From the NCBI GenBank assembly GCA_963717465.1, contig OY970340.1, positions 224,001 through 288,000 of the forward strand: a stretch of DNA of 64,000 nt, given 5' to 3'. The notes beneath the pieces are model-generated. The model was given only the letters and a program-made list of their open reading frames with translations. It was not told the origin of the DNA and did not search any database. This document shows positions 3 through 19,800 of the stretch, piece after piece (position 1 is the stretch's first letter; each line of letters starts with the position of its first letter). The DNA comes from Candidatus Bathyarchaeota archaeon (GTDB lineage: Archaea > Thermoproteota > Bathyarchaeia > Bathyarchaeales > Bathycorpusculaceae). Both the position numbers and the translations under genes were made by a program.

Positions 3-1088
3 TTGTTTTCTAAGAATGAACACTTAAAGAGAAATGCGACAGGTTATTGGTATGAAGCTGCAATTTATGAATCATTGTTAAAATCGGCTTTTTCAGATCA
101 TAATTACAAAGTGATTGCAAAGTGGGCAGATGTCCCAAAATGGAAAAGAAGGAGTCCAAAACTCGGTCAAAATGGATTATTCTATGATGAAAGTGGTGCT
201 CTTGTGGCAAGAGGAAATGGGCAGGACCTTGGAGAGTTTGACCTCTTAATTGCGAACGGAAAAGAAACGGCATTTGTCGAGGCGTTTACATCCGACTTTA
301 AGCTTGGAAAGATTGTTCAAGAAATTGATTATAAAAGACGTTTAATGAAAGCATTATTTTCTAATAATGTCCAATCTGTCTTAATATCTTGCTTAAATTT
401 AAGAAATAAAACGAGTTTGGCAACTTTCAGAGATGAAAGAAGTAACTTTTTAGTTGTTACTGGCGGATTGAAAGAATTTTTGCTTAATCTTAAACCTCAG
501 GACGTTTTCAAATTTAGTCCAATTAATATTTTTTTTAAGCAACAACTGTTATCAAACTTGGAGACTGTGAGGATCAATTACTTAGATTTGCACAATAAAT
601 TAAGAGAAAATATCGAGATATGCTTGGCAACGAATCAGGAGATATGCTTGGATAATAGTCAATTGCTGGTGAAGCGGGTTATAATTGGCTATTTAGATAA
701 TTCGACTTTAGAAGGATTTCTTCAAAAAGTCGCTCTGATGATAGGAGAGAGAAGAGTCACAAGCGCTAATTTGAAATTCTTTTCAAGGGTTATATTATCT
801 TTAAGCATTCCTACATTTCGCCCTACTCTTTACTTACGAGTACTTGACAGATCTGTTTATCTTAAGATGGGCCCATTTGCTAGTTCTTCGTTTGGTTTTG
901 AAAACAACATTAGACAAAAAAGGACGGCGTTTTTCAATTGGTTGGAATGCGTCGACTACAAAGCCAGCTTCACTTCGTTAAACAAAATATTAAATCGATA
1001 CATGAACGAAAAGAATATAATTAAAAGGAGAAAGAAAAGTGAGAAACCAGACTTGCCTTACTCTTTTTTTACAACTACTAATGCCTAA
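3..1088 (+). CDS. Hypothetical protein, possible PD-(D/E)XK nuclease-fold N-terminus; may be 5'-partial
   Basis: 361-aa ORF at the window edge with GYWYE...GEFDLL...AFVEA resembling an E..D..ExK-type motif (the Lys is not conserved). Confidence 0.45.
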   Translation: MFSKNEHLKRNATGYWYEAAIYESLLKSAFSDHNYKVIAKWADVPKWKRRSPKLGQNGLFYDESGALVARGNGQDLGEFDLLIANGKETAFVEAFTSDFKLGKIVQEIDYKRRLMKALFSNNVQSVLISCLNLRNKTSLATFRDERSNFLVVTGGLKEFLLNLKPQDVFKFSPINIFFKQQLLSNLETVRINYLDLHNKLRENIEICLATNQEICLDNSQLLVKRVIIGYLDNSTLEGFLQKVALMIGERRVTSANLKFFSRVILSLSIPTFRPTLYLRVLDRSVYLKMGPFASSSFGFENNIRQKRTAFFNWLECVDYKASFTSLNKILNRYMNEKNIIKRRKKSEKPDLPYSFFTTTNA

Positions 1089-1359
1089 CTGACAAGATCT
1101 CGGAATTTAGGAAAAATATTTTCAATGCGATGATTTCTTCATTCGTTTAATGGGCTTTCAAATTCGACGGCGTTTTAAAAGCCTGCTTTGATTAGAGCAG
1201 ATTTTTGATGTATTTTTGCGATTTTTGAGATGTCGTCTATTTCTCTCTGAAATAATGCTTCTTCAAGTTGAGACTTAAGGAGGTTCTGCCAAATGATAAC
1301 ATACAGTTTGATGATTCTATAAAGCATAGTGTGCTTTGCAAGGACAAGCAAAGCACGTA

Positions 1360-2349
1360 TTACGAAACGGATGCATCTGTAATGTATTTAATAATTAGGT
1401 TAAGAAAAAGTTTAGGCGGGCTGGCAGATTTTAGAGCGTATATTTTGTTTACACCATAGTTATTAATCGCTTTACGTAATGCTCCTTTAAATTTGGCTTC
1501 TCGTTCATTAAAAGGAAAACTTGAATAAAATTTACGTGAGTACACTTGGAAAGTCTGATATGGGTTTTTTGGATCAAAAGCTTTTTTATCTGATTTAGGA
1601 ACACGTTCTGATCGGTCCGCATGCAACCACTTAATCTCTCGGGGGTCATCTTTATTATTGACAACTAGTACCCAGTCGCCTTTTTTAAAATATTTTTTTG
1701 GAGCAGAAACAAGATCTACATTTTCAATTTGAGCATTCGTAAGTTCATATTCATTTTTCAAGATTTTTTTAACACTTTGAGCGGTAACACACGTTCCATC
1801 GATCAATGCAAGTTTCCATTTTTGTCTCCAAAGTGATTCATACCATTCGCGGTAAGATTGAATTCTGGCATTTCTAAAGATTCTTGGATTTTGCGCGAAG
1901 TATTCTCTTGGTTCAACATCTAATTTTTTGAGATCTTTTTCACTAACCTGACGTATTGGTCGGATTGATTGTATAATTCGGTCAATATCGATGTCTTTTG
2001 ATTCGAGAAGTATGCCTACTTCCTTTAGATTTCCACAGCCTAGAGCATTTGTTGAAAGATTAGCGGAAGTAATGATGGCACCTTGGTCTTCAGTCCAGTA
2101 GACTTTCATGTGGAGTGAATCTGAAAAAAAGACGTTGGCATCATTCTTGATTATCTTTCTAAGCGTGTTGGGATTGGTGCTTCCTGGCTTAGGCCAACAG
2201 TAGATTTCCATCTTCTTTGTTTTTCCAAGGTACACTTCTGCTCCATCACCCACAAATGCACTTACGGCAACTCGTCGTCCTTTGGATGATTCAAAAAGGT
2301 TAACAACAGCTTGGCGCACCTCACCTGATGTATATAGTATTTTTTGCAA
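1360..2349 (-). CDS. Phospholipase D-family (HKD) nuclease-like protein
   Basis: Single LHMKVYWTEDQGAIITSANLS motif (HxK...SANLS) in the N-terminal half; C-terminal domain unrecognised. Confidence 0.75.
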   Translation of the reverse strand: MQKILYTSGEVRQAVVNLFESSKGRRVAVSAFVGDGAEVYLGKTKKMEIYCWPKPGSTNPNTLRKIIKNDANVFFSDSLHMKVYWTEDQGAIITSANLSTNALGCGNLKEVGILLESKDIDIDRIIQSIRPIRQVSEKDLKKLDVEPREYFAQNPRIFRNARIQSYREWYESLWRQKWKLALIDGTCVTAQSVKKILKNEYELTNAQIENVDLVSAPKKYFKKGDWVLVVNNKDDPREIKWLHADRSERVPKSDKKAFDPKNPYQTFQVYSRKFYSSFPFNEREAKFKGALRKAINNYGVNKIYALKSASPPKLFLNLIIKYITDASVS

Positions 2350-2548
2350 TTTTCTAATCCCCCAGATAAATTTTACTATTTTGCAGAGAATAAAAAACTA
2401 TTCATTAGTTGTTTTAGTAGTATTTGATTCGCAAGCAAGATGAGAATCAGGCTATATTTTCATTTCTTCTATGCAAAAAGAGCCTGAGTAGATGATATTC
2501 TAAAAAAGGAGAAAGTAGCTGCGTAGAATTAGGAGAATTGGCGATGTC

Positions 2549-2587
2549 GCCAGCCTGTTGAGGATTCGAATCCCTCCCCGCCCGCCA
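2549..2587 (+). other. tRNA 3'-end fragment (att-like site)
   Basis: GAGGA-TTCGAAT-CCCTC-CCCGCCC-G-CCA: T-arm, acceptor strand and CCA; no matching 5' half (GGGCGGG) upstream; adjacent to integrase remnant. Confidence 0.75.
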
Positions 2588-2624
2588 CGGACAAACTCTC
2601 GTCCGTTTTGGCTCGGATGATAAT

Positions 2625-2852
2625 TATTTTCTTTTTTCTGAAAACCTTGTTGGTTCCGAAGTCGCAAACGAATTCAAAGCTAGCTTCAATTAGTTGACAG
2701 GTCTCCTGTTCTGCATGGGCTATTCTGGCGATATAGTCATCTTCTTTGAAGTCGACAAGCTGAGTGTACGTTAGAGTGCTTCTTATGCTCTTATGGCCTA
2801 ACACTTGCATGACGTGCAGTACATTTTTGGTTTTATGGTATTCCAGGGTGGT
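2625..2852 (-). pseudogene. Tyrosine integrase C-terminal remnant
   Basis: TLEYHKTKNVLHVMQVLGHKSIRSTLTYTQL has the LGH box and catalytic Tyr; the upstream HxxR region is absent. Confidence 0.85.
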
Positions 2853-2984
2853 GATAATATTAAATAAGATTCCTATGTAAATCTATTACAAACCATCAAG
2901 TTGACTCAAGTAATTTGCTAGAAATAGATGAAGAGGAATTGAATTAAAGTGTCATTTTTTCCAAGGATTTATCTCTGTTTTCGT

Positions 2985-3548
2985 TTATTTTTCTATCGCT
3001 ACCAGTAGCCACAATCCGTTCGACTCAACAAGTTGATATCCTTCTGAAGCCATTTTATTATTAATTTCTAAGATATTTTGTCTCACCCCATCACCAAAAA
3101 ACCATTCTGGATTTGCGATTCCACAAGCAATTGCAAAAATCATTTGAGAAGAAATTCTTTTTGGGAATTCCACTTTTTTTATTATTTGATAAATTCTATT
3201 GGATTCCTGTCGCATTGCACGGATAAGGCTCTCGGTTATAGGTGATTTCCCTTCTCCTAGATAATGCAAATTGTAGTACAGCCCTTGTTTGGGATAGAGT
3301 CTTAACATAACTAGATTGTCTGCATTTCGAACTGATATTCTGATTTTGCCAATATCTTGTGTCAGGCTCTCTATAACTTCGAAAACTTCTGGTCTGTCTC
3401 TCGCCAATTCAAGTATAATTTTCTTAATGTTGCAAACATCTAAAAGCTTATAACTTAAGTTATTCTTCAAATTAAGTTCTCCAACCCGGTAAGCTAAAGT
3501 ATCAACATCGACTAGTTCTTGTTCTTCAATGATGTACGGCAGCAGCAA
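2985..3548 (-). CDS. Hypothetical protein
   Basis: 187-aa ORF with no recognised motif. Confidence 0.5.
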   Translation of the reverse strand: MLLPYIIEEQELVDVDTLAYRVGELNLKNNLSYKLLDVCNIKKIILELARDRPEVFEVIESLTQDIGKIRISVRNADNLVMLRLYPKQGLYYNLHYLGEGKSPITESLIRAMRQESNRIYQIIKKVEFPKRISSQMIFAIACGIANPEWFFGDGVRQNILEINNKMASEGYQLVESNGLWLLVAIEK

Positions 3549-3590
3549 TAAGCGTTATAAGGTGAAAAACTAACTTAGTTCTGAGAAGGT

Positions 3591-3785
3591 ATGACAATCG
3601 AAGTTGATTTGAAAGAAATAAAATCGCTACTTTCTGAGGTAAGCAGCAAAATAGATTCTTTACTAGAGCAAAAAGACACCAGTGCTCTCATGGCTCTAGA
3701 AGAGAAGTCTCTTAAAGATTTCCTTGAAGGTGAACCTGATATTTACTCGATTAAAGATATCAAGTCAAAGGTTAAAGGTAATTGA
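3591..3785 (+). CDS. Putative antitoxin
   Basis: 64-aa ORF overlapping the start of a PemK/MazF gene; acidic C-terminus FLEGEPDIYS. Confidence 0.7.
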   Translation: MTIEVDLKEIKSLLSEVSSKIDSLLEQKDTSALMALEEKSLKDFLEGEPDIYSIKDIKSKVKGN

Positions 3786-4108
3786 AAGGGAAAATAGTTC
3801 TTATCCCATTTCCGTTCACTGATTTAACATCAAGTAAGTTAAGGCCCGCGCTTGTGCTGCATGAAGGAGAAAAAGATGTTGTAGTAGCTTTCATTTCATC
3901 CAGAGTAGCAAAAGCAAAACCCCTTGATGTATTAATCAACGAGGCACATTCAGAATTCGAAGGTACAGGGCTCAAATTATCATCAACTATTAAACTCGAC
4001 AAGATAGCGACAGTTTCAAAGGATTTGATTCTTGGAGAAATAGGCAAAGCCGGCCCCAAACTTAAAAAAGAAATAAACAATAAAATCTCAAAAACTCTTT
4101 TGCTCTAA
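3782..4108 (+). CDS. PemK/MazF-family toxin
   Basis: GKIVLIPFPFTDLTSSKLRPALVL...GLKLSSTIKLDKI signature. Confidence 0.9.
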   Translation: MKGKIVLIPFPFTDLTSSKLRPALVLHEGEKDVVVAFISSRVAKAKPLDVLINEAHSEFEGTGLKLSSTIKLDKIATVSKDLILGEIGKAGPKLKKEINNKISKTLLL

Positions 4109-4220
4109 CCATGTGCTTGCTTTTAATGGGGTAAAATTGAGAAGAAATTTGACAAGCTTACGGAATACCTAAAAACGTGTTGCCTCTAACCAAACTATCG
4201 TTTGCATCATATGTGAGGCA

Positions 4221-4910
4221 TTGAGTACAAGCGTTATCAGCATGAACACCTCAAACCAAACCTCACACAACACCAGCGTTTTCCGTGGGGTTGACCGTAT
4301 AGTTAAAGGCGCCCTTCAACCGCCTGACCTGCATAAACAGTATGTATTGGGCGTTGACTTGGCAAAGCTCCATGATTTCACTGTCTTGGTAGTTTTGGAT
4401 TTGGATGGGCATTTGGTTGCTTTTGACCGTTTTAGCCAGTTAGATTGGGTTTTCCAGCGTAAACGAATAGTTCAACTTGCCCAACAATACAACAACGCCC
4501 GCTTACTGATCGATAGCAGTGGAGTTGGTGATCCAGTCTGTGACGAGCTTCAAAGGAAGAACGTGCAACTAGAGGGGCACAAGTTTACCTATGCGTCCAA
4601 GAAGGATTTGATTGAAAACTTAAGTATGATTATTGAGAACCAACAGGTTACCATTCCGCCGATTCCCGAGTTAATCAATGAGCTTAAGCTGTTCGGCTAC
4701 AAAACTTTAGCAAGCGGAAATTTCCATTATGGAGCACCCGAAGGCTACCATGACGACACTGTTATTGCTCTTGCGCTTGCAGCTTGGCAGATTAAACATA
4801 ATAACCAAAAACCATCATCAGGCATAAGCATTGCATTTCCAAGGAAACAAAAATATTATCTACTACATAAAGAGCAAGAGCTTTTCGACAAGGCAATAAT
4901 TACATTATAG
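4221..4910 (+). pseudogene. Phage terminase large subunit, RNase H-like nuclease domain only
   Basis: YVLGVDLAK-HDFTVL, IDSSGVGDPV and HDDTVIALALA motifs; ATPase domain missing. Confidence 0.8.
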
Positions 4911-4961
4911 AACACTACTAATGCACGCTCTCATGTGGGTGCGGTCTCAAAATGCTTTTCT

Positions 4962-7268
4962 TTAGTTCTTTTGATTATTAGGCGGAGTATTGTTTCGGTT
5001 GTCACTAATTGCCATCAGATGTCGCAAAATAATGGTTGCAGCCTTTTTGTCTAATGGTTCGTTTTCATTGCCACATTTTGGTGAATAAATGCATGATGGG
5101 CAGCCGTCTTTGCACTCGCAATTTTCAATTAATTTAAGGGTCTTTTCCCAGAGCGGTTTTACGTTTAAGTAGAGGTTTTCCGATATTCCGATTCCGCCTT
5201 CAAACCCATCATAAACAAAGATGGTTGGTTCTCCCGTGTCTGGGTGAAGAGGTGTCGATAGTCCGCCTATATCCCACCTGTCACACATCGCAAATATTGG
5301 TGACATAGCTATCATTGCGTGTTCAACAGCATGAAGCCCTCCATTAAAATCAAGTTCTTGTGTTTCAATTTCGTCTCTGAGCTCTTCTGGAATTAAGAAC
5401 CACATACCGACTGTTGTGAAAGTCAACGGGGGCAAATTTAGTGGCTGTCTTTTGATAACTTCATCATAAGTTTTTGTAACATAGGTGTGGCAGTTTTCAG
5501 TAATGGCTAATTCTCCCAGTCCAACTTTGACTCCATTTTGCTTCTCTTCAAAGGTTTTCTTTATTGCTACATCGACGGTTTTCAATGCTTCCGTGTAGTA
5601 ATTGACATCTTCTTGCCTGACTCTTGCCGTTAATTGTTCGAGGTCAAGTTCTTCCGATATGTAGGTTTCTCCCTGATGCAGCAAGACTGCTCCTGCATGT
5701 ACTTCTTCATATGCTTTGTTTAGAGTCAGAGTTTCGAGCAGGTTTCCGTTGCAGGAAACCGTAACTGTTTTATCTGAAATGCTTTCAAGACTTACAACTT
5801 CAACAGGTCGTGCAGTCCCCGAATAAACCCATCCTCTGGGTGTTTTGCGGACAAGATGCTGTTGCTCCAATGCTTGAATACTTTCTGAAAAAAGCTCTGG
5901 GAAAAATTGTTTATCACTGTCAGTAATAGGTAGTTCGCTGGCTGCGCACATGATGTGCCCCAGAGAGACATACTGGTTGTGCAAATCGATAATGGCTTGC
6001 TCATGTGGTCTTCCAAAGAAGTCCTGTGGATGTTTCATGAAGTATTGGTCAAGCGGGTTTTGAAAAGCAACAAGAGATACCAGCGAATCTGCGTTGGTTC
6101 TGCCAGCACGTCCTGCTTGCTGCCAAGTGGATATGATTGTTCCGGGATAGCCAGATATTATTACAGAATCAAGAGATCCTATGTCGATTCCAAGCTCCAA
6201 CGCATTAGTAGAGACGACTCCGATCAAGCTCTTACTTTTTAGTCTGTTCTCTATGTCTCTTCTCTCTTGTGGGAGATAGCCTGCCCTATAAGCTGTTACC
6301 GCGTTTGATAGTTTGGCTGATCTTTTTCTAAGCTCTTCTTTAGTCCATCGGGTGATAAGTTCAGCCATTTGTCTGGATGTGGTAAAACAAAGAGTTTGCA
6401 GGTTTTTCAAGACGCTAAGTGTTAGGAGATCTTTGGTTTCTTGGTGGGTAGATCTGCGAATTGTATTATTTGAATCAATGAATGGCGGGTTCCAAAAAAC
6501 GAATGATTTCTTTCCCCTCGGGGCGCCGTCATTTGAGATAATCTCGAAGTCTTTTCCAGTTAATTTCTTGGCATGCTCTTCAGGGTTAGCGATTGTTGCG
6601 GATGAGAGTATGATTTGTGGGTCTGCATGATAATAATTGCATATTCTCATTAGACGTCTAAGGAGCATAGCTACGTTAGAACCGAATACTCCTCGGTAAA
6701 CGTGGGCTTCATCGATTATTATGAATTTGAGATTTTGTAGAAAAGTCCGCCATTTGTAGTGCCATGGAAGGTATTGGTGAAGACCATATGGATTGGTTAA
6801 GATGATTTTTGAGTTTTCCCGTATGCTTGCTCGTTGATGTTGGGGTGTGTCCCCATCGTAAATATTAGGTGATGCTTCAATTCCTATTTCTTTTTCAAAT
6901 TCTTTTAGTACTTTTAGTTGGTCATTTGTTAATGCTTTTGTGGGGTAAAGGTAAAGTGCAGTTGCTTTCTTGTCTTTTGTGAGAGCTTCAAGAACTGGGA
7001 TGTTGAAGGCTAGAGTTTTCCCTGAGGCTGTTGGTGTAACTATAACTACGTTTTTGCCTTGACGGGCTTTATTTATGGCTTCGGCTTGGTGGGAATAAAA
7101 AGTGATTTTCCTGTTCAGCAAGCAAGTTTGGATATTCTCTGGAAGAGAATTCTCAAGCTCGCTAAAGCTTGCTTTTTGGGCGGGAATTTCTTCGATATGT
7201 ACAATTTGTTTTTTGTAAGACTGCATCAGCTTTATGCTTTTGATGAATTCATCGATCAAAGATTCCAT
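4962..7268 (-). CDS. DEAH helicase with C-terminal DUF1998 four-Cys domain (MrfA/YprA/Hrq1 family)
   Basis: TPTASGKT, DEAH, SAT, QQAGRAGR, then CD...CECKDGCPSC. Confidence 0.92.
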   Translation of the reverse strand: MESLIDEFIKSIKLMQSYKKQIVHIEEIPAQKASFSELENSLPENIQTCLLNRKITFYSHQAEAINKARQGKNVVIVTPTASGKTLAFNIPVLEALTKDKKATALYLYPTKALTNDQLKVLKEFEKEIGIEASPNIYDGDTPQHQRASIRENSKIILTNPYGLHQYLPWHYKWRTFLQNLKFIIIDEAHVYRGVFGSNVAMLLRRLMRICNYYHADPQIILSSATIANPEEHAKKLTGKDFEIISNDGAPRGKKSFVFWNPPFIDSNNTIRRSTHQETKDLLTLSVLKNLQTLCFTTSRQMAELITRWTKEELRKRSAKLSNAVTAYRAGYLPQERRDIENRLKSKSLIGVVSTNALELGIDIGSLDSVIISGYPGTIISTWQQAGRAGRTNADSLVSLVAFQNPLDQYFMKHPQDFFGRPHEQAIIDLHNQYVSLGHIMCAASELPITDSDKQFFPELFSESIQALEQQHLVRKTPRGWVYSGTARPVEVVSLESISDKTVTVSCNGNLLETLTLNKAYEEVHAGAVLLHQGETYISEELDLEQLTARVRQEDVNYYTEALKTVDVAIKKTFEEKQNGVKVGLGELAITENCHTYVTKTYDEVIKRQPLNLPPLTFTTVGMWFLIPEELRDEIETQELDFNGGLHAVEHAMIAMSPIFAMCDRWDIGGLSTPLHPDTGEPTIFVYDGFEGGIGISENLYLNVKPLWEKTLKLIENCECKDGCPSCIYSPKCGNENEPLDKKAATIILRHLMAISDNRNNTPPNNQKN

Positions 7269-12770: not shown

Positions 12771-14868
12771 TTATTTGCTTTTGTTGAACTTAAACTTAGC
12801 CAGCTTCAGGGTCGCTGAATTTGTTACAACTGTCAGGCTGCTTATCGCCATGGCTCCAGCCGCGTAAACAGGATTAAGCAATCCTAAGGCAGCAATCGGA
12901 ATCATTACGATGTTGTAACCGAACGCCCAAAACAAATTTGAGTTAATCTTTTGCATAGTTCTTTTACTAAGTTCAATGGCTAAAGCGACATCTTCCAAAT
13001 CATCTTTAATGAGCACAATGCCGCCTGCTTCCTTGGCGATGTCAGTTCCGCTACCAATTGCGATCCCAATGTCAGCTTGAGCTAATGCTGGAGCATCGTT
13101 AATGCCGTCACCAACCATCGCCACAGTCTTGCCCTCAGCTTGCAGCTGCTTGATGACGTCGACTTTTTGCCAAGGCAAGACGTTTGCTATAACCTTTTCA
13201 ATCCCTAGTTGCTTAGCAATCGCTTGTGCAGTTTTCTGATTGTCGCCCGTGAGCATAGCCACTTCAAGATTCATGCTTTTCAACTGGTTCATTGCGGTTG
13301 CTGCGTTTTCTTTCGGGGTATCCATAGCAGCAATTAAACCTACCGCTTGACCGTCAACTGCCAACATCATAACAGTTTTGCCGTTATCCTGCAAAATGGA
13401 CAGGTCATTTTCTAAAACTTCAACGTTGATCTTTTGCTCTTGCATGAGAGCGCGGTTTCCAAGCAGCACTTTTTTGCCGTTCACAGTACACTTTACTCCT
13501 CTGCCGGGCAAGGCTTCAAAGTTGTTGGTCGTGAAAAGCTTCACTTGCTGTTCATTTGCTTTCTTTGTGATGGCGTCTGCCAGCGGATGCTCTGAGCTTT
13601 GTTCCACGGAGCCTGCAAACCGCAATACATCATTTTCGCTGAAGCCTTCGTATGGTTTAATGTCGGTTACTGCGGGTTCGCCTTTAGTTAGTGTTCCAGT
13701 TTTATCGAAAACTACAGTGGTTAGTTTTCTTGCGCGTCCACGTATTCCCCGCTGCGCAGCAAAACTCCATATTCCGCGCCTTTGCCGACACCCGCTAAAA
13801 TGGCAGTGGGAGTTGCAATACCCATTGCACAAGGACAAGAAATTAACAAGACAGCCAACAATGCCAGGAAAGCGGTTGTGAAGCCTCTTGCAAAAAACCA
13901 GTAAGTAAACGAAACAGCGGCGACTGTGAAGATTATTGGTACGAACCATGAAACTATTTTATCAGCGAACTTTTGCACGGGTGCATTGCTGGCTTGTGCT
14001 TCTTCCACTAAATGCACAATTTGCGATAAAGCTGTTTCATCGCCTACTTTGGTAGCTTTAACTGTTAAGGCGCCAGTTTTATTGATGGTTCCGCCGATAA
14101 CAGGGCTGCCTATGGTTTTTTCCACGGGGATGCTTTCGCCGGTGAGCAGCTTTTCATCAACTGACGAGTAGCCCTCAGTTATTTGTCCATCGGTTGGGAT
14201 TTTTTCGCCAGGCTTTACAAGCATGACGATACCAACTTGCACTTCATCGATTGGCACATTGACTTCTTGTCCATCTTTTATAACTCGAGCCATAGTAGGT
14301 TGCAGCTCAAGCAGGGCGCGAATTGAAGCAACTGAACGGCGACGTATGAGCTCTTCGATATATTTACCCAACAAGACAAACGCTAGAATTCCAATCGATA
14401 CTTCAAGATAGCCCGTCCCTGAAGCAAAACGTGGAAAAAAGCTGCTAGTGCCCCATAAGACCAGCCTGCAAGTACACCGGTAGCCACAAGAACATCCATG
14501 TTGACATTGTGATTTCTAAGTGATAGGTAAGCGCCTTTAAGAATGTTAAAGCCAGCATAAAAAACGATTGGAATTGAAATTATAAATATAATAAAATTGT
14601 AAGCTGTTAGTTGCCCGACTAACTCCAAAGCATTTAAAGCTATCAAAAAGCCGAACGCTGAGGCAATTTTTAATCCAGCGGCTGCTATAGCCGCAAGCAG
14701 AGTTAAAGTAACTTTTCTTTGCATCGCTTTTAATTCGCGTTCTGGTGCAGTGTAAACATCAGCGCATTGTTGGCTACAAAAATAGTACGTTCGATCGCCT
14801 ATTTTGCGGCTTATAGCGGTCTCAGTATCCACATCCATGCCGCATACAGGGTCTCGAGCTTTAGCCAT
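12771..14868 (-). CDS. copA: Heavy-metal (Cu-type P1B) P-type ATPase with N-terminal YHS domain; two frameshifts
   Basis: [29 protein letters not shown] and YN motifs across three ORFs. Confidence 0.88.
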
Positions 14869-14969
14869 TCATATTTCCCTTTTTACTTTTAATATACTAG
14901 TTTTAAAGGATATAATATCGATAAGTTAATGATTGAATTACCGATTGAATCGGTCTTTAAAAGATATAT

Positions 14970-14977
14970 TTATTTCG
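14970..14977. repeat. Target-site duplication TTATTTCG (left copy; right copy at 19316-19323)
   Basis: Identical 8-mers abut both terminal inverted repeats. Confidence 0.92.
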
Positions 14978-14982
14978 GGTTC

Positions 14983-15060
14983 TGTTAACTTATTGATGGA
15001 TGGGTTTTTCTGTTAATTGTCGTGGGATAATTTTTCTCCATGTTAACTTTCGTGGGATAA
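14983..15060 (+). repeat. Left subterminal repeat array (TGTTAAnnnTCGTGGGATAA)
   Basis: Copies at 14983 (degenerate, part of the TIR), 15011-15030 and 15041-15060. Confidence 0.9.
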
Positions 15061-15158
15061 ACTAAAGAGCCATTGTAATCAATAGATTAGATTAATATCT
15101 TAATATGAGAAGCCTCAAATAAATATAAAGCAAATAATTGACGTAAGGTTGATTAAAA

Positions 15159-15488
15159 CTGAACCAAGAAGAAGCAATACTTAAAATTTTTACTGATGCT
15201 GAAATAGTTAAACTAAAACAGCATTTAGGTCAAGGTCATTTCATCGATTGCCTTCTTATGCTTGCTTTAAACTGCAATCAATGGGGCACAGCAAAAGAGT
15301 TCGCAGATAAAAACAATTTACCTCTGAGTTTTTATGCTTATAGAGCAAGAATGAAAGAGATTGAAAATCTCGGATATGCAACAAGCAAACCGATTGACCC
15401 TTTAAAAAAATCGTATCAAATAACTGAATCAGGAAAAAAAATCGTTAATTCTCTATTGTTATTTTTTGAGCAATTAAAAAAAGAGTAA
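15159..15488 (+). CDS. Winged-helix DNA-binding protein (start uncertain, about 15149-15258)
   Basis: Frame open from 15153; RARMKEIENLGY...SYQITESGKKI wHTH-type pattern. Confidence 0.7.
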   Translation: MNQEEAILKIFTDAEIVKLKQHLGQGHFIDCLLMLALNCNQWGTAKEFADKNNLPLSFYAYRARMKEIENLGYATSKPIDPLKKSYQITESGKKIVNSLLLFFEQLKKE

Positions 15489-15495
15489 AATAAAA

Positions 15496-16632
15496 TTAAC
15501 TTGATTTTCTGCTTGCATTTTCGATTAGAGTTTTCCACTTGTTTTCTCCTTGAATTTGGATACCGCAAGCTTCGGCGGGAGTTTTTCCTTCTAATGCTTC
15601 ATGGGGTCTGATATAGTTGTGGTAAAGTTGGTAGCCTTTCAAAACTGCCGTTGCATCCATCTTTAAACCCCTCATTGTCTTTTCTCTATCTCTAATTTCA
15701 CCGTTCATGCGTTCCATTTTATTGTTGTTTCTATCGCCTCTAAGTTGGATATGAGCAATATGCTCGGTTCTTGTCTCTTTACATTGTGTCCAAAATTCCT
15801 TTTTGTAAGCATCATGATAAGCTGGAAGACCATCAGTTATGAAGGTCATAGGCTTTTTGCCCATTAATTCTTTAGACATTTTTAGCAAGTTTCTTGCATC
15901 ATGTTTGTCTTTGGTTTCTGCGACTTCTTGGGCAATCCAGAACCTTGTCTCATCATCCATCATAGCAAACAAATATTTCATGTTACCGTTGATTTTGACA
16001 TATAGTTCATCGGCTCTCCAAGTGTCTGAAACATTTGGCTTTATTTTTTCAAGATATTCAGTCATTAAAGCCGTGTACTTAGTTACCCACTTTAAAATTG
16101 ATACGTGACTAATCGTTATTCCTTGAAGCTTTAAGAATTTCTGAACATTTCTAAGACTCTCTCCTGTGAAATATAACTGCATAGCGGAAGTGATAACTTG
16201 CGGCGCAACCCTTGTTTTTTCAAACCCTAAGTTTAATGTAAAGTGTTTTTTGCAATCTTGGCAGAGATAAATTTGGAGATTGCCTTTCTTGTTGTGTCTT
16301 AAGCCGTCTTTGACTATGTTTGATGAACCACATATTTGGCAGTTTTGAAGGTTCAATTCAGGGATAACTTTGTTAACTGCTACTTCAGTTCTCAGTTTAA
16401 TTGAAAGTTCAACAGCAAAAATATGTTTGCATTTTACGTGTCGGTAGGTGTGGTCTGGGCATTCACAGTGCCATTCACTGTCAACCTGATAAATCGCATA
16501 TTCGCCATTTCCCGATTGACTTTTGACTGTGTAAAAGTTCTCTTCAACACGGTTAACTTGACACTCTTTGGCTTTAGCTATTACTAAACCTCTTTCTTCA
16601 CGGATTTGTTCAAGTTTTTCAAGGCTCATCAT
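15496..16632 (-). CDS. IS6-family DDE transposase with N-terminal SWIM finger and Zn ribbon
   Basis: CECPDH...CKH (SWIM), CQICG...CQDC, WRADE / ITDG / NNKMER triad, YHNYIRPH. Confidence 0.92.
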   Translation of the reverse strand: MMSLEKLEQIREERGLVIAKAKECQVNRVEENFYTVKSQSGNGEYAIYQVDSEWHCECPDHTYRHVKCKHIFAVELSIKLRTEVAVNKVIPELNLQNCQICGSSNIVKDGLRHNKKGNLQIYLCQDCKKHFTLNLGFEKTRVAPQVITSAMQLYFTGESLRNVQKFLKLQGITISHVSILKWVTKYTALMTEYLEKIKPNVSDTWRADELYVKINGNMKYLFAMMDDETRFWIAQEVAETKDKHDARNLLKMSKELMGKKPMTFITDGLPAYHDAYKKEFWTQCKETRTEHIAHIQLRGDRNNNKMERMNGEIRDREKTMRGLKMDATAVLKGYQLYHNYIRPHEALEGKTPAEACGIQIQGENKWKTLIENASRKSS

Positions 16633-16635
16633 GTG

Positions 16636-16700
16636 CTTATACCTGTATTGGTATAAGTAGCAACCAAGTATTTAAAGTTATACCATTAAGGGTATAACTT
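16636..16700. promoter_or_regulatory. Twin palindromic operators TTATACC-N6-GGTATAA in the divergent transposase/MTase promoter
   Basis: CTTATACC-tgtatt-GGTATAAG (16636-16657) and AAGTTATACC-attaag-GGTATAACTT (16675-16700) around TATA-like boxes. Confidence 0.8.
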
Positions 16701-16730
16701 ATATACATCTTCTGCTATAATCATAAAATC

Positions 16731-17876
16731 ATGCCAATATCTTACAAAGAAGTAAGCAACACCAAATACATCTATTTTTCTTATTATGATAACGAGCAAA
16801 GAAAAAAAATAGAAATTTACTGTGGAACGGCAAACGACCCTACAGCTATAGAAAAAGCTGAAGCACTTGAAAGCGAACATTTAAAGAAACAAATTTCAAA
16901 TCTCCAACTGCAACTAAAAGAGTACGATACTGGCACAATCAAGAAATCAAGAAAACGAAAGTCCAAAACTGTCAAGCAATCAATACAAGATAATATCGAA
17001 ATGCAAGAATATTTGAGAAATGCAACGCTCTATGACCCTGAAGTTTACTATAAAACAAGCGAACATATGGACGCAGTTCAGGATAATTCAATTCAATTAA
17101 TCGTGACATCGCCGCCATACAACGTAGGAAAAGAATACATTGCTTATGATGATAAAAAAGAGCTTCAAGTTTATCTCGATTTCCTTAACAATGTATGGAT
17201 AGAATGTAAAAAGAAACTATGTAAAGGTGGTCGTATAGCAGTGAACATCGCTGATACTTGGAGAACACCTTACATTCCGTTGCATTGCTACATCACTAAA
17301 CAGCTTGTAGATTTAGGCTTCTTGATGCGTGGTGTTGTCTTTTGGGATAAAGGTGCAAGCGTTGGCATTTCAACAGCATGGGGTTCGTGGCGGTCTGCCT
17401 CTAACCCATGTTTACGAGATGTCGGTGAGTACATACTTATTTTCGCAAAAGATGATTTCAAACTAGAATCAGAAACTAAAATATCAACTATCACAGCAGA
17501 CCAATTCACAACATATACAAAGTCACTATGGACATTTTCAACGGTTCAAAAACCCAAAGATAGTGACCATCCCGCACCATTTCCAGATGAATTACCCAAA
17601 CGTTTGATTTTGCTTTATACCTTTTTAGGTGGAACAGTTCTCGACCCCTTTCTCGGTTCGGGAACAACATGCAAAGTTGCTAAAGCTCTTGGCAGAAAAA
17701 GTATCGGTTACGAGATTGACGAAAGTTATAAGCCTGAGATTGAACTGAAAATTAATAGTGTGAAGTCAATCGGGTTATCACTTGACGCTTTCACTGCAAA
17801 CGGCAAAAAAACACTAAATCAAGATTTGCCTGCTATACCTATTTCCTTAAGGTCAAGTACGAACGATTCAAGCTGA
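16731..17876 (+). CDS. Beta-class amino-DNA methyltransferase (likely N4-cytosine) with an extra N-terminal domain
   Basis: VTSPPY...HPAPFP...LDPFLGSGTT motif order. Confidence 0.92.
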   Translation: MPISYKEVSNTKYIYFSYYDNEQRKKIEIYCGTANDPTAIEKAEALESEHLKKQISNLQLQLKEYDTGTIKKSRKRKSKTVKQSIQDNIEMQEYLRNATLYDPEVYYKTSEHMDAVQDNSIQLIVTSPPYNVGKEYIAYDDKKELQVYLDFLNNVWIECKKKLCKGGRIAVNIADTWRTPYIPLHCYITKQLVDLGFLMRGVVFWDKGASVGISTAWGSWRSASNPCLRDVGEYILIFAKDDFKLESETKISTITADQFTTYTKSLWTFSTVQKPKDSDHPAPFPDELPKRLILLYTFLGGTVLDPFLGSGTTCKVAKALGRKSIGYEIDESYKPEIELKINSVKSIGLSLDAFTANGKKTLNQDLPAIPISLRSSTNDSS

Positions 17877-18514
17877 CTTTTCTTTGTAACATCATAAATT
17901 GCTTTTACAGTAGCATTTCTATAGCCATGCAAGTGGTTTGGTATAGCATTAGTTACGATAAAGAAGTGACCTTTTGGGAAACGTTCATTCCATTTTTTAG
18001 CGTTTGCAAAAGCTTTTTTCTCTGTGTCTGAGCGCATCATTCCAGGTCTGTCTAGATGTGAGTGTGTTCCATCAGGATTTATAATATAGTCTGGTGACCC
18101 CTTTGCTTCTATCACCACATCAGTTTTTATCTCTAAATCATAAAGCCTAGTTACGTCAGAAGTAGGTCGTGCCGTTATCCCAAAATTCTTATTTAGAAGT
18201 AACCAAAATGCCCATTGGAATTCTTCACCAACATATGTGGCACGAGCTTGAAAAGTGGCTACTTCGTAAACATATCTTTCTCCGCATACTGGACAGGTAT
18301 CGGGTTTATCGCCCCACCCATATGAAAATTTTTTTAGTTCCATACATCTAACACAAACCCAACATTTATACAATGCCATAGCTTTGCAAATATTGTTGAA
18401 GCAACTTGTAAAATATCGTGAAAGTGAATCGTTTGTCATACCATTTTTTTCGATAATATCATAATTTTGTTTCGCTACTGTCAAGTATGGTGTAGCTGAT
18501 TCAGGAACTGACAT
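17819..18514 (-). CDS. Putative type II restriction endonuclease (PD-(D/E)XK, Zn ribbon)
   Basis: CVRC...CPVC, GEEF, YDLE...IEAKGS; convergent with and overlapping the MTase. Confidence 0.7.
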   Translation of the reverse strand: MSVPESATPYLTVAKQNYDIIEKNGMTNDSLSRYFTSCFNNICKAMALYKCWVCVRCMELKKFSYGWGDKPDTCPVCGERYVYEVATFQARATYVGEEFQWAFWLLLNKNFGITARPTSDVTRLYDLEIKTDVVIEAKGSPDYIINPDGTHSHLDRPGMMRSDTEKKAFANAKKWNERFPKGHFFIVTNAIPNHLHGYRNATVKAIYDVTKKSQLESFVLDLKEIGIAGKS

Positions 18515-18626
18515 AATTCACTTATTAATGACCTATTGATATTTAAAACTAATCAAATAAAAACAAACGTATAAACATAAGAAACGATAAATAATCAATT
18601 AAATGTAGTTTGGCGAGAGGGTTATC

Positions 18627-18908
18627 TTGTCAGTTTACAAAAGAAAACTTAGACAGAGTGAAGCTGAAAGATATTTTATTTATGTTGAAGCATCAGTTCG
18701 TAAAATGTTTCCTAAACCACTCGTAAAATTTTCCGTTTTAGTTAATGGTAAATCATTCGATGCTAGGATTGACGCTAGATGGCGTATTTGGGCTAACTAT
18801 TTCTGGAATTCACTATCATCATTCAAAGAGGGTGATATGGTCACTATTGAAAAAACTGCCAATCGTGCTTTTACTGTTTCGGTGAATCCTGCTGAGAATG
18901 TTCACTAG
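18627..18908 (+). CDS. Small protein, putative B3/EcoRII-N-like DNA-binding pseudobarrel (paralog 1)
   Basis: KLRQSE..RYFIYV....RKMFP...GKSF...RIW...GDMVTIEK; paralogous to 18871-19176. Confidence 0.6.
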   Translation: MSVYKRKLRQSEAERYFIYVEASVRKMFPKPLVKFSVLVNGKSFDARIDARWRIWANYFWNSLSSFKEGDMVTIEKTANRAFTVSVNPAENVH

Positions 18909-19176
18909 CTAACCCAAGTCTATTTTTGTCTCTTTTTGTAAAAATTACGACTTGGTAAGGCTTCATGTTAATGCAATCCTTTATCATATTGGCATTTATC
19001 CATATTCTTCCATAAGCGTCTAAGTTAGCTTGAAATTCTTTTTTACCAATTATTATCGTAAATTTTTCATTTAAATCAGGAAACATCGAACGGGCAGTAT
19101 CGACAACGTATATGTACCCTCGCGATGATTCCGAGGTTGAAAGTACCTTCCGATAATATTCTAGCATCTTTCTCAA
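18871..19176 (-). CDS. Small protein, putative B3/EcoRII-N-like DNA-binding pseudobarrel (paralog 2)
   Basis: KVLSTSE..RGYIYV....RSMFP...KKEF...RIW; ATG at 19167. Confidence 0.6.
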   Translation of the reverse strand: MRKMLEYYRKVLSTSESSRGYIYVVDTARSMFPDLNEKFTIIIGKKEFQANLDAYGRIWINANMIKDCINMKPYQVVIFTKRDKNRLGLASEHSQQDSPKQ

Positions 19177-19220
19177 GTATTTAACAAAACTAAAATATTA
19201 AATTATTTCATCAAACCCAA

Positions 19221-19310
19221 TTATCCCACGATTGTTAACAGTTAAATCAGGCTATAGTAGCCTATCCCACGACCTTTAACATGAACCCCAAATCCCATGA
19301 CAAGTTAACA
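19221..19310 (-). repeat. Right subterminal repeat array
   Basis: Minus-strand TGTTAACAATCGTGGGATAA (19221-19240), TGTTAAAGGTCGTGGGATAG (19262-19281), TGTTAACTTGTCATGGGATT (19291-19310). Confidence 0.9.
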
Positions 19311-19518
19311 GAACCTTATTTCGGGGCAAAAGCCAAAAATGAAATGAGTAACAGCAAAAAAATTAAACTAAAAACCTGTAATGAGCAAATGCAGAAAAGC
19401 AACAGCTAATTTCACGATTGGTTCCATTTAGAATTACCCCTGCTTAGTGAGTTGCTAAAGCATTTAATTACATGCCTAATGATTGGAATTCAGGCGATTT
19501 TTCTCAGGAATAAAGCCG

Positions 19519-19800
19519 CTATTCTAATCGTTTGATTATGTGGTACCCAAACTGTGTTTTGACAGGATTTGAAGTCTGCCCCTTTTCCAGCTCGAATGCA
19601 CATTTCTCGAACTCTTTAACCATTTTACCCCTAGTAAAAGTGCCAAGGTCTCCACCCTTTTTTCCAGAGGGACAAAGAGAAACCTGCTGAGCGACTGCAC
19701 CAAATTTTTCGCCTTTATCTAACCGGGCTTTAGCTGCTTTAGCTTCAGTTTCCGTTTTAACCAATATATGTGCACAATGTACTTTATCTGGCATGAACAA
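19519..19800 (-). CDS. Parvulin/PpiC peptidyl-prolyl isomerase
   Basis: HILVK, SLCPSGKKGGDLG, GKMVKEFE, TQFGYHII. Confidence 0.93.
   Translation of the reverse strand: MFMPDKVHCAHILVKTETEAKAAKARLDKGEKFGAVAQQVSLCPSGKKGGDLGTFTRGKMVKEFEKCAFELEKGQTSNPVKTQFGYHIIKRLE

Follow-up and report, generated by a model that had tools for sequence, protein, structure and literature searches.

A cargo-carrying, IS6-related transposon of a Bathyarchaeota archaeon and its family: evidence for insertion at core promoters and for growth of polarised arrays

Most members of the IS6/IS26 family of insertion sequences (IS) encode a transposase of 220-250 aa, and the archaeal members listed in the available part of one account have transposases of 211-231 aa in elements of 696-778 bp (PMC6807381). 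In the same portion its authors argue that IS6 may not be the right family for long elements or for archaeal ones, and the accessible text of an IS6 review names one passenger-carrying member, ISDsp3 (PMC7986276). A survey of thaumarchaeal mobile elements, in its available part, describes IS-like elements of one or two genes (PMC6563490). A paper on Atabeyarchaeia, likewise in part, reports five IS-like elements and leaves IS6 unnamed in its main text; its supplement shows IS605 rows in two places, and its Table S1 may list L114, one of the loci compared here (PMC11529989). The present analysis concerns an element of 4,338 bp in a 64,000-bp stretch of a Candidatus Bathyarchaeota genome (contig OY970340.1, positions 224,001 to 288,000; hereafter the window). 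With a probability of roughly 80%, we regard it as a recently inserted, autonomous unit transposon from an archaeal, IS6-related family that always carries cargo, is aimed at core promoters and builds polarised arrays. A literature search, to which ISfinder, TnCentral and subscription papers were out of reach, found no description of this family.

The element is bounded by terminal inverted repeats (TIRs) matching at 14/14 positions (GGTTCTGTTAACTT) and by a target site duplication (TSD) matching at 8/8, in agreement with the initial annotation. It lies alone, outside any array, and has a GC content of 35.5% against 40.1% genome-wide. The exact 14-mer of the TIR occurs five times in the 3.05-Mb genome, every time at an end of the family. 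Six open reading frames (ORFs) lie inside, among them genes for a DNA methyltransferase (MTase) and a putative restriction endonuclease (REase), which together make up a restriction-modification (RM) module. The parts of the element are as follows.

14970-14977, no strand: left TSD, TTATTTCG
14978-15001, plus strand: left TIR (14 bp, perfect, 14978-14991) with the terminal bipartite site TGTTAA-N5-octamer
15011-15028, plus strand: left subterminal repeat 1, TGTTAA-N4-CGTGGGAT, a putative extra transposase-binding site
15041-15058, plus strand: left subterminal repeat 2
15153-15488, plus strand: small ORF of ~111 codons with a host paralog at 48.6% identity, without family match
15496-16632, minus strand: transposase, 378 aa, with SWIM domain (1-84), Zn ribbon (~95-135), H-HTH (~140-195; helix and helix-turn-helix) and DDE core D208/D267/E307
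16731-17876, plus strand: N4/N6 DNA MTase, 381 aa, with SPPY at 127, DPFLGSG at 305 and an N-terminal extension
17819-18514, minus strand: putative REase of PD-(D/E)xK type, 231 aa, fold nearest PspGI/AgeI/PfoI/Cfr10I; convergent with the MTase gene, 58-bp overlap
18627-18908, plus strand: small paralog 1, 93 aa, of an archaeal family without a name; EcoRII-N/B3 is the closest named one (score 0.84, a lead only)
18871-19176, minus strand: small paralog 2, 101 aa, convergent with paralog 1
19223-19240, minus strand: right subterminal repeat 2
19264-19281, minus strand: right subterminal repeat 1
19292-19315, minus strand: right TIR (14 bp, perfect, 19302-19315) with terminal bipartite site
19316-19323, no strand: right TSD, TTATTTCG

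The transposase scores 131.8 bits against NF033587 (cut-off 125) and 63.5 bits against PF13610, and its residues D208, D267 and E307 are invariant among 128 sequences. A DDE transposase above the NCBIfam cut-off for IS6 is thus shared with IS6/IS26, as are the TIR starting with GG and containing a cTGTt core and the TSD of 8 bp. The first nine bases of the TIR (GGTTCTGTT) equal the consensus GGTTCTGTTGCAAA given in the available part of PMC6807381, whereas bases 10-14 differ. Assignment to the IS6 family, as originally made, therefore holds in the broad sense of the NCBIfam cut-off, but size, domain layout and end structure depart from those of the described members. The transposase of 378 aa carries a SWIM domain and a zinc ribbon, every intact unit of the family is at least 2.15 kb long and carries cargo, and instead of the one-repeat ends of IS6 (14-20 bp) there are extra bipartite sites, as judged from a scan of the family's own ends. 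Extra subterminal sites, promoter targeting and arrays do not appear in the accessible portions of the IS6 descriptions (PMC7986276; PMC6807381).

The nearest named transposases, at about 33% identity over two thirds of the length, are those of clostridial IS6-like elements (ISCpe7 type, clade h), with which the family has an N-terminal zinc finger in common. Provisionally, in a quick tree, 48 long archaeal transposases stood apart from short bacterial IS6 transposases (clades of IS26, IS257, IS1216 and IS6100; support 92), as sister to two long bacterial ones of this kind (89); three short archaeal rows filled 17% of the columns. The clostridial elements differ in lacking a SWIM motif in two examples and in having ends that rarely start with GG, and the available part of their description contains neither cargo nor a promoter rule. 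An IS6 pseudo-compound or composite transposon was considered and rejected: one transposase and one pair of ends are present, and the next copies, about 70% identical, are located at other places in the genome. With one transposase and passenger genes inside one TIR pair flanked by a TSD, the element corresponds to a transporter IS (tIS). The conserved helper ATPase and target-selector genes of Tn7-like elements have no counterpart among 335 internal ORFs of 74 elements of the family, whose clustering shows no shared helper.

Three further transposases of the same genome (~70% identity) each lie inside their own TIR pair with a perfect 8-bp TSD. Their units comprise 7,477 bp (N6 MTase, specificity subunit, EVE-like gene and RelE-like gene), 3,629 bp (N4/N6 MTase and BsaWI-like nuclease) and 4,084 bp (transposase broken by a stop); a non-autonomous unit of 684 bp brings the genome to five TIR- and TSD-bounded units. 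Siblings with different cargo, as anticipated by the initial annotation, are thus present in the genome, and also in relatives. Transposase matches, some of them weak, were obtained in 26 of 36 genomes of the same genus, and 5,530 proteins match at E<=0.001, distant IS6 proteins included. Hosts include Bathyarchaeia, Nitrososphaerota and Atabeyarchaeia, while a few records bear bacterial labels (all labels as deposited); the best-labelled homologs belong to Bathyarchaeia. Two of the five units, at L002 and L004, adjoin genes for proteasome beta subunit-like products.

The boundaries were sought with a family-agnostic search (GG...CC ends, an exact repeat of k bp, an inverted repeat of at least 10-11 of 14). 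At k=8, pairs were found at all 14 close loci from relatives and at 61 of 79 related public loci. At the latter, k=9 or 10 gave none and k=7 gave two, so that the TIR and TSD boundaries, which are conserved around transposase homologs as predicted, do not arise by chance. Twelve of the 18 loci without a k=8 pair have less than 3 kb of contig on one side. After removal of six duplicates and of L121, a 10/14 pair foreign to the family, 74 elements remained; L304, also a non-family pair, was removed from 12 held-out elements, leaving 11. Leaving the 684-bp unit aside, the 73 transposase-bearing units range from 2,153 to 12,099 bp (median 3,275), hence none consists of a transposase only.

In three cases a genome has the same complete unit at two places: L098/L099, with different TSDs, L281/L282 and L283/L284. 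This supports the earlier proposal of a unit, transporter-type, IS6-related element that moves a defence module. The family might also move in an IS26-like manner, in which replicative cointegration from a plasmid or virus and subsequent host recombination take the place of simple insertion. The IS6-type core and the 8-bp TSD would fit this route, as would the identical copies L281, L282 and L283 in one complete genome without matching TSDs, a state that adjacent deletions would leave, and the position of a sibling end in L170 beside a region with a tyrosine-recombinase gene. Conversely, a perfect TSD is kept in the 61 of 79 loci, the identical copies L098 and L099 are chromosomal and each has its own TSD, and a search of viral contigs returned no relative. 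Cointegration accordingly stays a real possibility, well below an even chance.

Both ends of the window element contain two inner subterminal repeats, which the initial annotation had missed together with promoter targeting and arrays. Across the family, 116 of 146 ends have extra sites that match the element's own terminal octamer, usually at a distance of 28-29 or 37-39 bp from the first site. Of the interior controls, 4 of 146 were positive; scored with the octamer of another element, only about 36 of 146 ends were positive. In the mechanism that we propose, one transposase would act on paired ends carrying two or three element-specific binding sites each. Insertion would occur at a fixed distance upstream of a TATA box with duplication of 8 bp, which would leave the promoter whole and regenerate the target.

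The target rule was derived from offsets read outward from the first TSD base. All-A/T hexamers containing TA are most frequent at offset 14, where 38 of 136 flanks have one; the background has a mean of 3.6 and a maximum of 10. The pattern TTTAWAWA with up to two mismatches peaks at offset 13, not 14. A TATA-like run at offset 13-15 is present in 46 of 73 loci, in contrast to 9.9% of random non-coding positions of the same loci, and 9 of the 11 held-out elements follow the rule. So do further sites in the genome of the window, including a decayed stack at a tfb promoter. This stack of mini-elements (L005 4618-5193; G000 C1:2316617-2317192) lies directly upstream of the promoter, and a frameshifted second tfb copy is found ~800 bp away on the other strand. 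Gene starts face the element in 52 of 60 closed loci. On the TATA side an ORF start was found in 35 of 48 cases, mostly at a distance of 31-125 bp. Elements lie in either orientation relative to the target (29 vs 27), and the same promoters have been used independently in different genomes, e.g. one gene at 78 and 74 bp. Two simpler types of target were ruled out: a fixed target sequence, as the TSD 8-mers differ, and a single host gene, as only 10 pairs of alike flank proteins occur among 60 loci.

A distribution of this kind could in principle result from near-random insertion into A/T-rich non-coding DNA, if selection kept the insertions that spare genes and promoters. The non-coding share of the flanking DNA is only about 21% (ORF mask), surviving insertions must be harmless, and some loci have no motif. 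Selection would not, however, yield a downstream-side peak with a width of two to three bases, nor the re-use of an identical 8 bp by unrelated elements, and this explanation appears very improbable. For the family as a whole, genome comparison establishes insertion aimed at predicted core promoters.

Between TSD and TATA, at positions that were not selected for, bases resembling a B recognition element (BRE) recur, namely R (purine) at offset 7, A at offsets 9 and 10 and Y (pyrimidine) at offset 13. The BRE consensus can be worded cRnaANt. A at offset 10 is found in 35 of 43 TATA flanks, compared with 37 of 93 other flanks. The signal fits a BRE directly upstream of a TWTATATA-type box, as described in the available part of PMC2699501. 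Either the TBP-TFB complex on the promoter or the BRE/TATA DNA itself could place the transpososome, and the additional SWIM domain may mediate this. Direct reading of BRE/TATA-like DNA by the transposase, through sequence or bendability and without a host protein, would leave unit and target unchanged. A consensus at fixed offset is compatible with direct reading, the TATA-like run at the window's own site may not be the working promoter, and the casposase by itself recognises the TSD plus an adjacent 18-bp segment (PMC5137440, part of the article). The motif is, on the other hand, as degenerate as natural promoters and has a BRE signature besides TATA, which suggests the geometry of TBP-TFB; moreover, the target rule is constant across transposases whose subterminal octamers differ. 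Positioning by the TBP-TFB complex is therefore our tentative preference, at slightly less than even odds, and direct readout is a plausible but somewhat weaker candidate.

In arrays, the next family end lies exactly 8 bp from the element end in 14 of 146 flanks, and only three other positions were observed within 1 kb. A single 8-mer may serve three or even more different elements, which occur in both orientations (L068, L075 and L079). All 16 arrays border host DNA with a full-length unit, and 13 of the 16 have a TATA run on that side; distal units are often truncated, with a mutated outer TSD. This arrangement is predicted by promoter-anchored re-insertion, in which later elements would enter the same 8 bp and displace older ones away from the promoter, so that polarised arrays would form.

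Targeting of resident element ends is known from IS911 and IS30, and arrays could have been built in this manner independently of promoters. All 14 adjacent ends are exactly one TSD away, and the attack would presumably fall on the scissile bond of the resident end itself. Elements that lie alone, though, already obey the promoter rule, and in none of the 16 arrays does a decayed unit lie between an intact unit and the promoter side of the host, which makes end targeting improbable as the origin of the arrays.

Several described systems resemble the family in part. Ty3 places a DDE integrase at a precise distance from a TBP-containing initiation complex, where insertion is harmless (bioRxiv 10.1101/2021.07.27.453949, in the available part); in the same portion it is a retroelement at Pol III genes whose tethering was seen by electron cryo-microscopy, whereas the present family consists of DNA transposons at promoters of protein genes, with tethering proposed from the position of motifs. 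ISAjo2 of the IS1202 family has, in the accessible text, a single large transposase and a further binding site close to each end, and it inserts at a fixed distance from the site of a host protein (PMC10132070). It differs in its TnsB-like transposase, TGT ends, 5-bp TSD, XerC/dif target and fixed orientation (PMC10132070, same portion), as opposed to the GG ends, 8-bp TSD, either orientation and cargo found here. Casposon arrays and CRISPR spacer acquisition share re-use of a regenerated target, units separated by TSDs and polarised growth (PMC5137440, in part), but casposons use Cas1 chemistry and one fixed target sequence, according to the text available, and the family uses DDE chemistry and many different promoters. 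The family's targeting is like that of Ty3 and IS1202 and its array growth like that of casposons, and it belongs to none of these. It is conceivable, with the odds a little against it, that the TBP-TFB pre-initiation complex has been co-opted as a landing pad in a Ty3-like manner, and that CRISPR-like, polarised arrays of defence cassettes grow upstream of core genes in Bathyarchaeia, Nitrososphaerota and Asgard archaea.

Several observations weigh against promoter targeting and array growth as described. Only 11 of 18 close held-out loci have a TIR and TSD pair, 27 of 73 loci fail the simple TATA test, and an ORF start is also faced by 44 of 86 non-TATA flanks. A promoter matrix learnt by expectation-maximisation from 1,501 upstream regions of the window's genome gave no peak; the matrix had drifted off TATA and was replaced by simple fixed patterns scanned over all offsets. 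The motifs are candidate promoters, the genomes are related, so that P values are overstated, and the search for arrays started from intact transposases, so that there is a bias as to which of the units seems young. At the insertion site in the window the rule is followed only loosely: a TATA-like run occurs at offset 15, the conserved TATA of the relatives' copA promoters is near offset 28, and a palindrome lies at the insertion point. Genome comparison nevertheless documents, for the family, movement as a unit, ends with several candidate sites, a fixed geometry to predicted BRE/TATA motifs, re-use of targets and frequent RM or toxin-antitoxin cargo.

On this reading, archaea gain a widespread, previously unnamed carrier of RM and toxin-antitoxin genes, and defence islands could grow cassette by cassette at one promoter. 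A one-protein DNA transposase acting at a fixed distance from an unbroken TATA would be a testable case of a mobile element that reads the basal transcription machinery. If true, it would represent a Ty3-like strategy in a prokaryotic DNA transposon, within a domain that shares the TBP-TFB machinery with eukaryotes. Insertion sites would mark promoters in uncultured archaea, a safe-harbour integration tool is a possible use, and the family bears on the question whether IS6 is one family.

The element of the window separates copA from ppiC; the relevant host features are given below.

12771-14868, minus strand: host copA (heavy-metal P-type ATPase), three overlapping ORFs; start faces the insertion, 109 bp off
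14955-14962, minus strand: TATA-like run TTTTAAAG in the copA upstream region, outside the element, at offset 15; loose fit to the target rule
19519-19800, minus strand: host ppiC (parvulin) on the other flank, syntenic with copA in relatives

The ppiC-copA gap is below 1 kb, too small for an element, in 17 of 29 loci of the same genus, and after removal of the element it would measure about 300 bp here. The exact empty site with a single TTATTTCG was not recovered from the same-genus loci or from one shallow read run, which gave four short pieces at 100% identity but no joint. The copA upstream region (14929-14969, minus strand) contains a palindrome, AAAGATATATCTTT, which is common to the relatives and precedes their TATA; the insertion is on its outer edge. 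The palindrome is likely a copper-regulator site. A second palindrome in the same region is ACCGATTCAATCGGT. The copA gene shows two frame changes, whereas the matches of relatives are collinear, and it may be a pseudogene or contain assembly indels; the genome is a single contig, 88% complete, in which other genes are split too. Elsewhere in the family, four flanks (L052 left, L075 right, L077 left and L081 right) have in common a probable regulator site, the palindrome GAGTAG-N-TACTC, after which comes a TATA run near offset 36.

Among the cargo genes of the window element, the MTase is by its motifs a clear N4/N6 enzyme (PF01555, 154 bits; PADLOC MTase_II, 281 bits), with both the catalytic motif SPPY and the S-adenosylmethionine-binding motif DPFLGSG. 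The nuclease had no match in Pfam, NCBIfam or PADLOC and none in Foldseek at E<=0.001. Its predicted structure is confident (pLDDT 93.8), and its top seven structural matches are all type II REases, namely PspGI, AgeI, PfoI, Cfr10I, Bse634I, Ecl18kI and NgoMIV (Z 11.2 to 8.4; for PspGI, Z 11.2 with a root-mean-square deviation of 5.2 over 181 residues). From the CCGG-family REases among them (PspGI, AgeI, PfoI, Cfr10I and Ecl18kI) it differs by the absence of a sequence-family match, by an identity of at most 16% and by an added zinc ribbon. It retains D126, E136 and K138 as well as the invariant residues R161 and D163, and 6 of 12 scanned homologs are fused to an N6_N4_Mtase domain, the same family as the element's MTase. 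Based on the profile and the predicted fold, respectively, an MTase and its cognate PD-(D/E)xK endonuclease are both present and would constitute a type II RM pair, as first annotated. Counts of restriction sites in the DNA were uninformative for this pair. From general RM biology, the likely roles of the pair are host defence and stabilisation of the element by addiction.

The nuclease was matched in only 2 of 119 other genomes of the genus. The same RM pair, at 76% DNA identity, abuts a different type of family end in L170, where the small paralogs are absent, and cassettes therefore move between elements. Beside this end, L170 contains an integrative element-like gene run (257-5848) with a tyrosine recombinase-like gene, membrane proteins and a glycosyltransferase. 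The small paralogs of the window element share 42% identity over 57 aa and resemble EcoRII-N/B3 domains, a resemblance to be taken as a lead only; a sequence search for solved structures found none for them and none for the transposase. The small ORF at 15153-15488, initially called a winged helix-turn-helix gene, had no match in Pfam, NCBIfam or PADLOC. Its first ATG, GTG or TTG does not occur before codon 36 and the alignment to the host paralog begins at codon 5, so that for this ORF neither the winged helix-turn-helix label nor an unbroken reading frame is confirmed.

Within the family, 18 of 74 elements carry DNA MTase genes; for elements of at least 4.3 kb the figure is 15 of 21. The cargo scan covered 150 of the 335 ORFs with Pfam and 69 proteins with PADLOC; three ORFs of at least 120 aa, ORFs with X and most shorter ORFs were left out. 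Other cargo comprises Panacea, Fic, HEPN, GNAT, NYN, proteasome-like and TBP genes, and the majority of cargo ORFs had no match. When the 335 ORFs were clustered, the commonest non-RM cluster was an AbrB-like gene of ~60 aa in 11 elements. Many elements contain remnant ends, which suggests that cargo may be gained by nesting. One 7.6-kb element carries a divergent TBP gene (L067 2961-3521), whose product is 31% identical to the host-type TBP. Genes resembling proteasome subunits are carried in L046, L130 and L138, and we take them to be possibly of the Anbu type. A two-gene cassette (about 275 aa and about 98 aa) without family match recurs in L064, L068, L071 and L085, with RM genes alongside.

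No pair of GG-starting TIRs with an 8-bp repeat was obtained for the long transposases that are more distant (36-41% identity, and the 445-468 aa group), and they stand outside the claims made here. These related SWIM transposases of 445-468 aa (L288-L295 and L298-L306) have other ends, GATTC... or TTTAC...; multiple copies occur in one genome, and in another the length is 4,976 bp.

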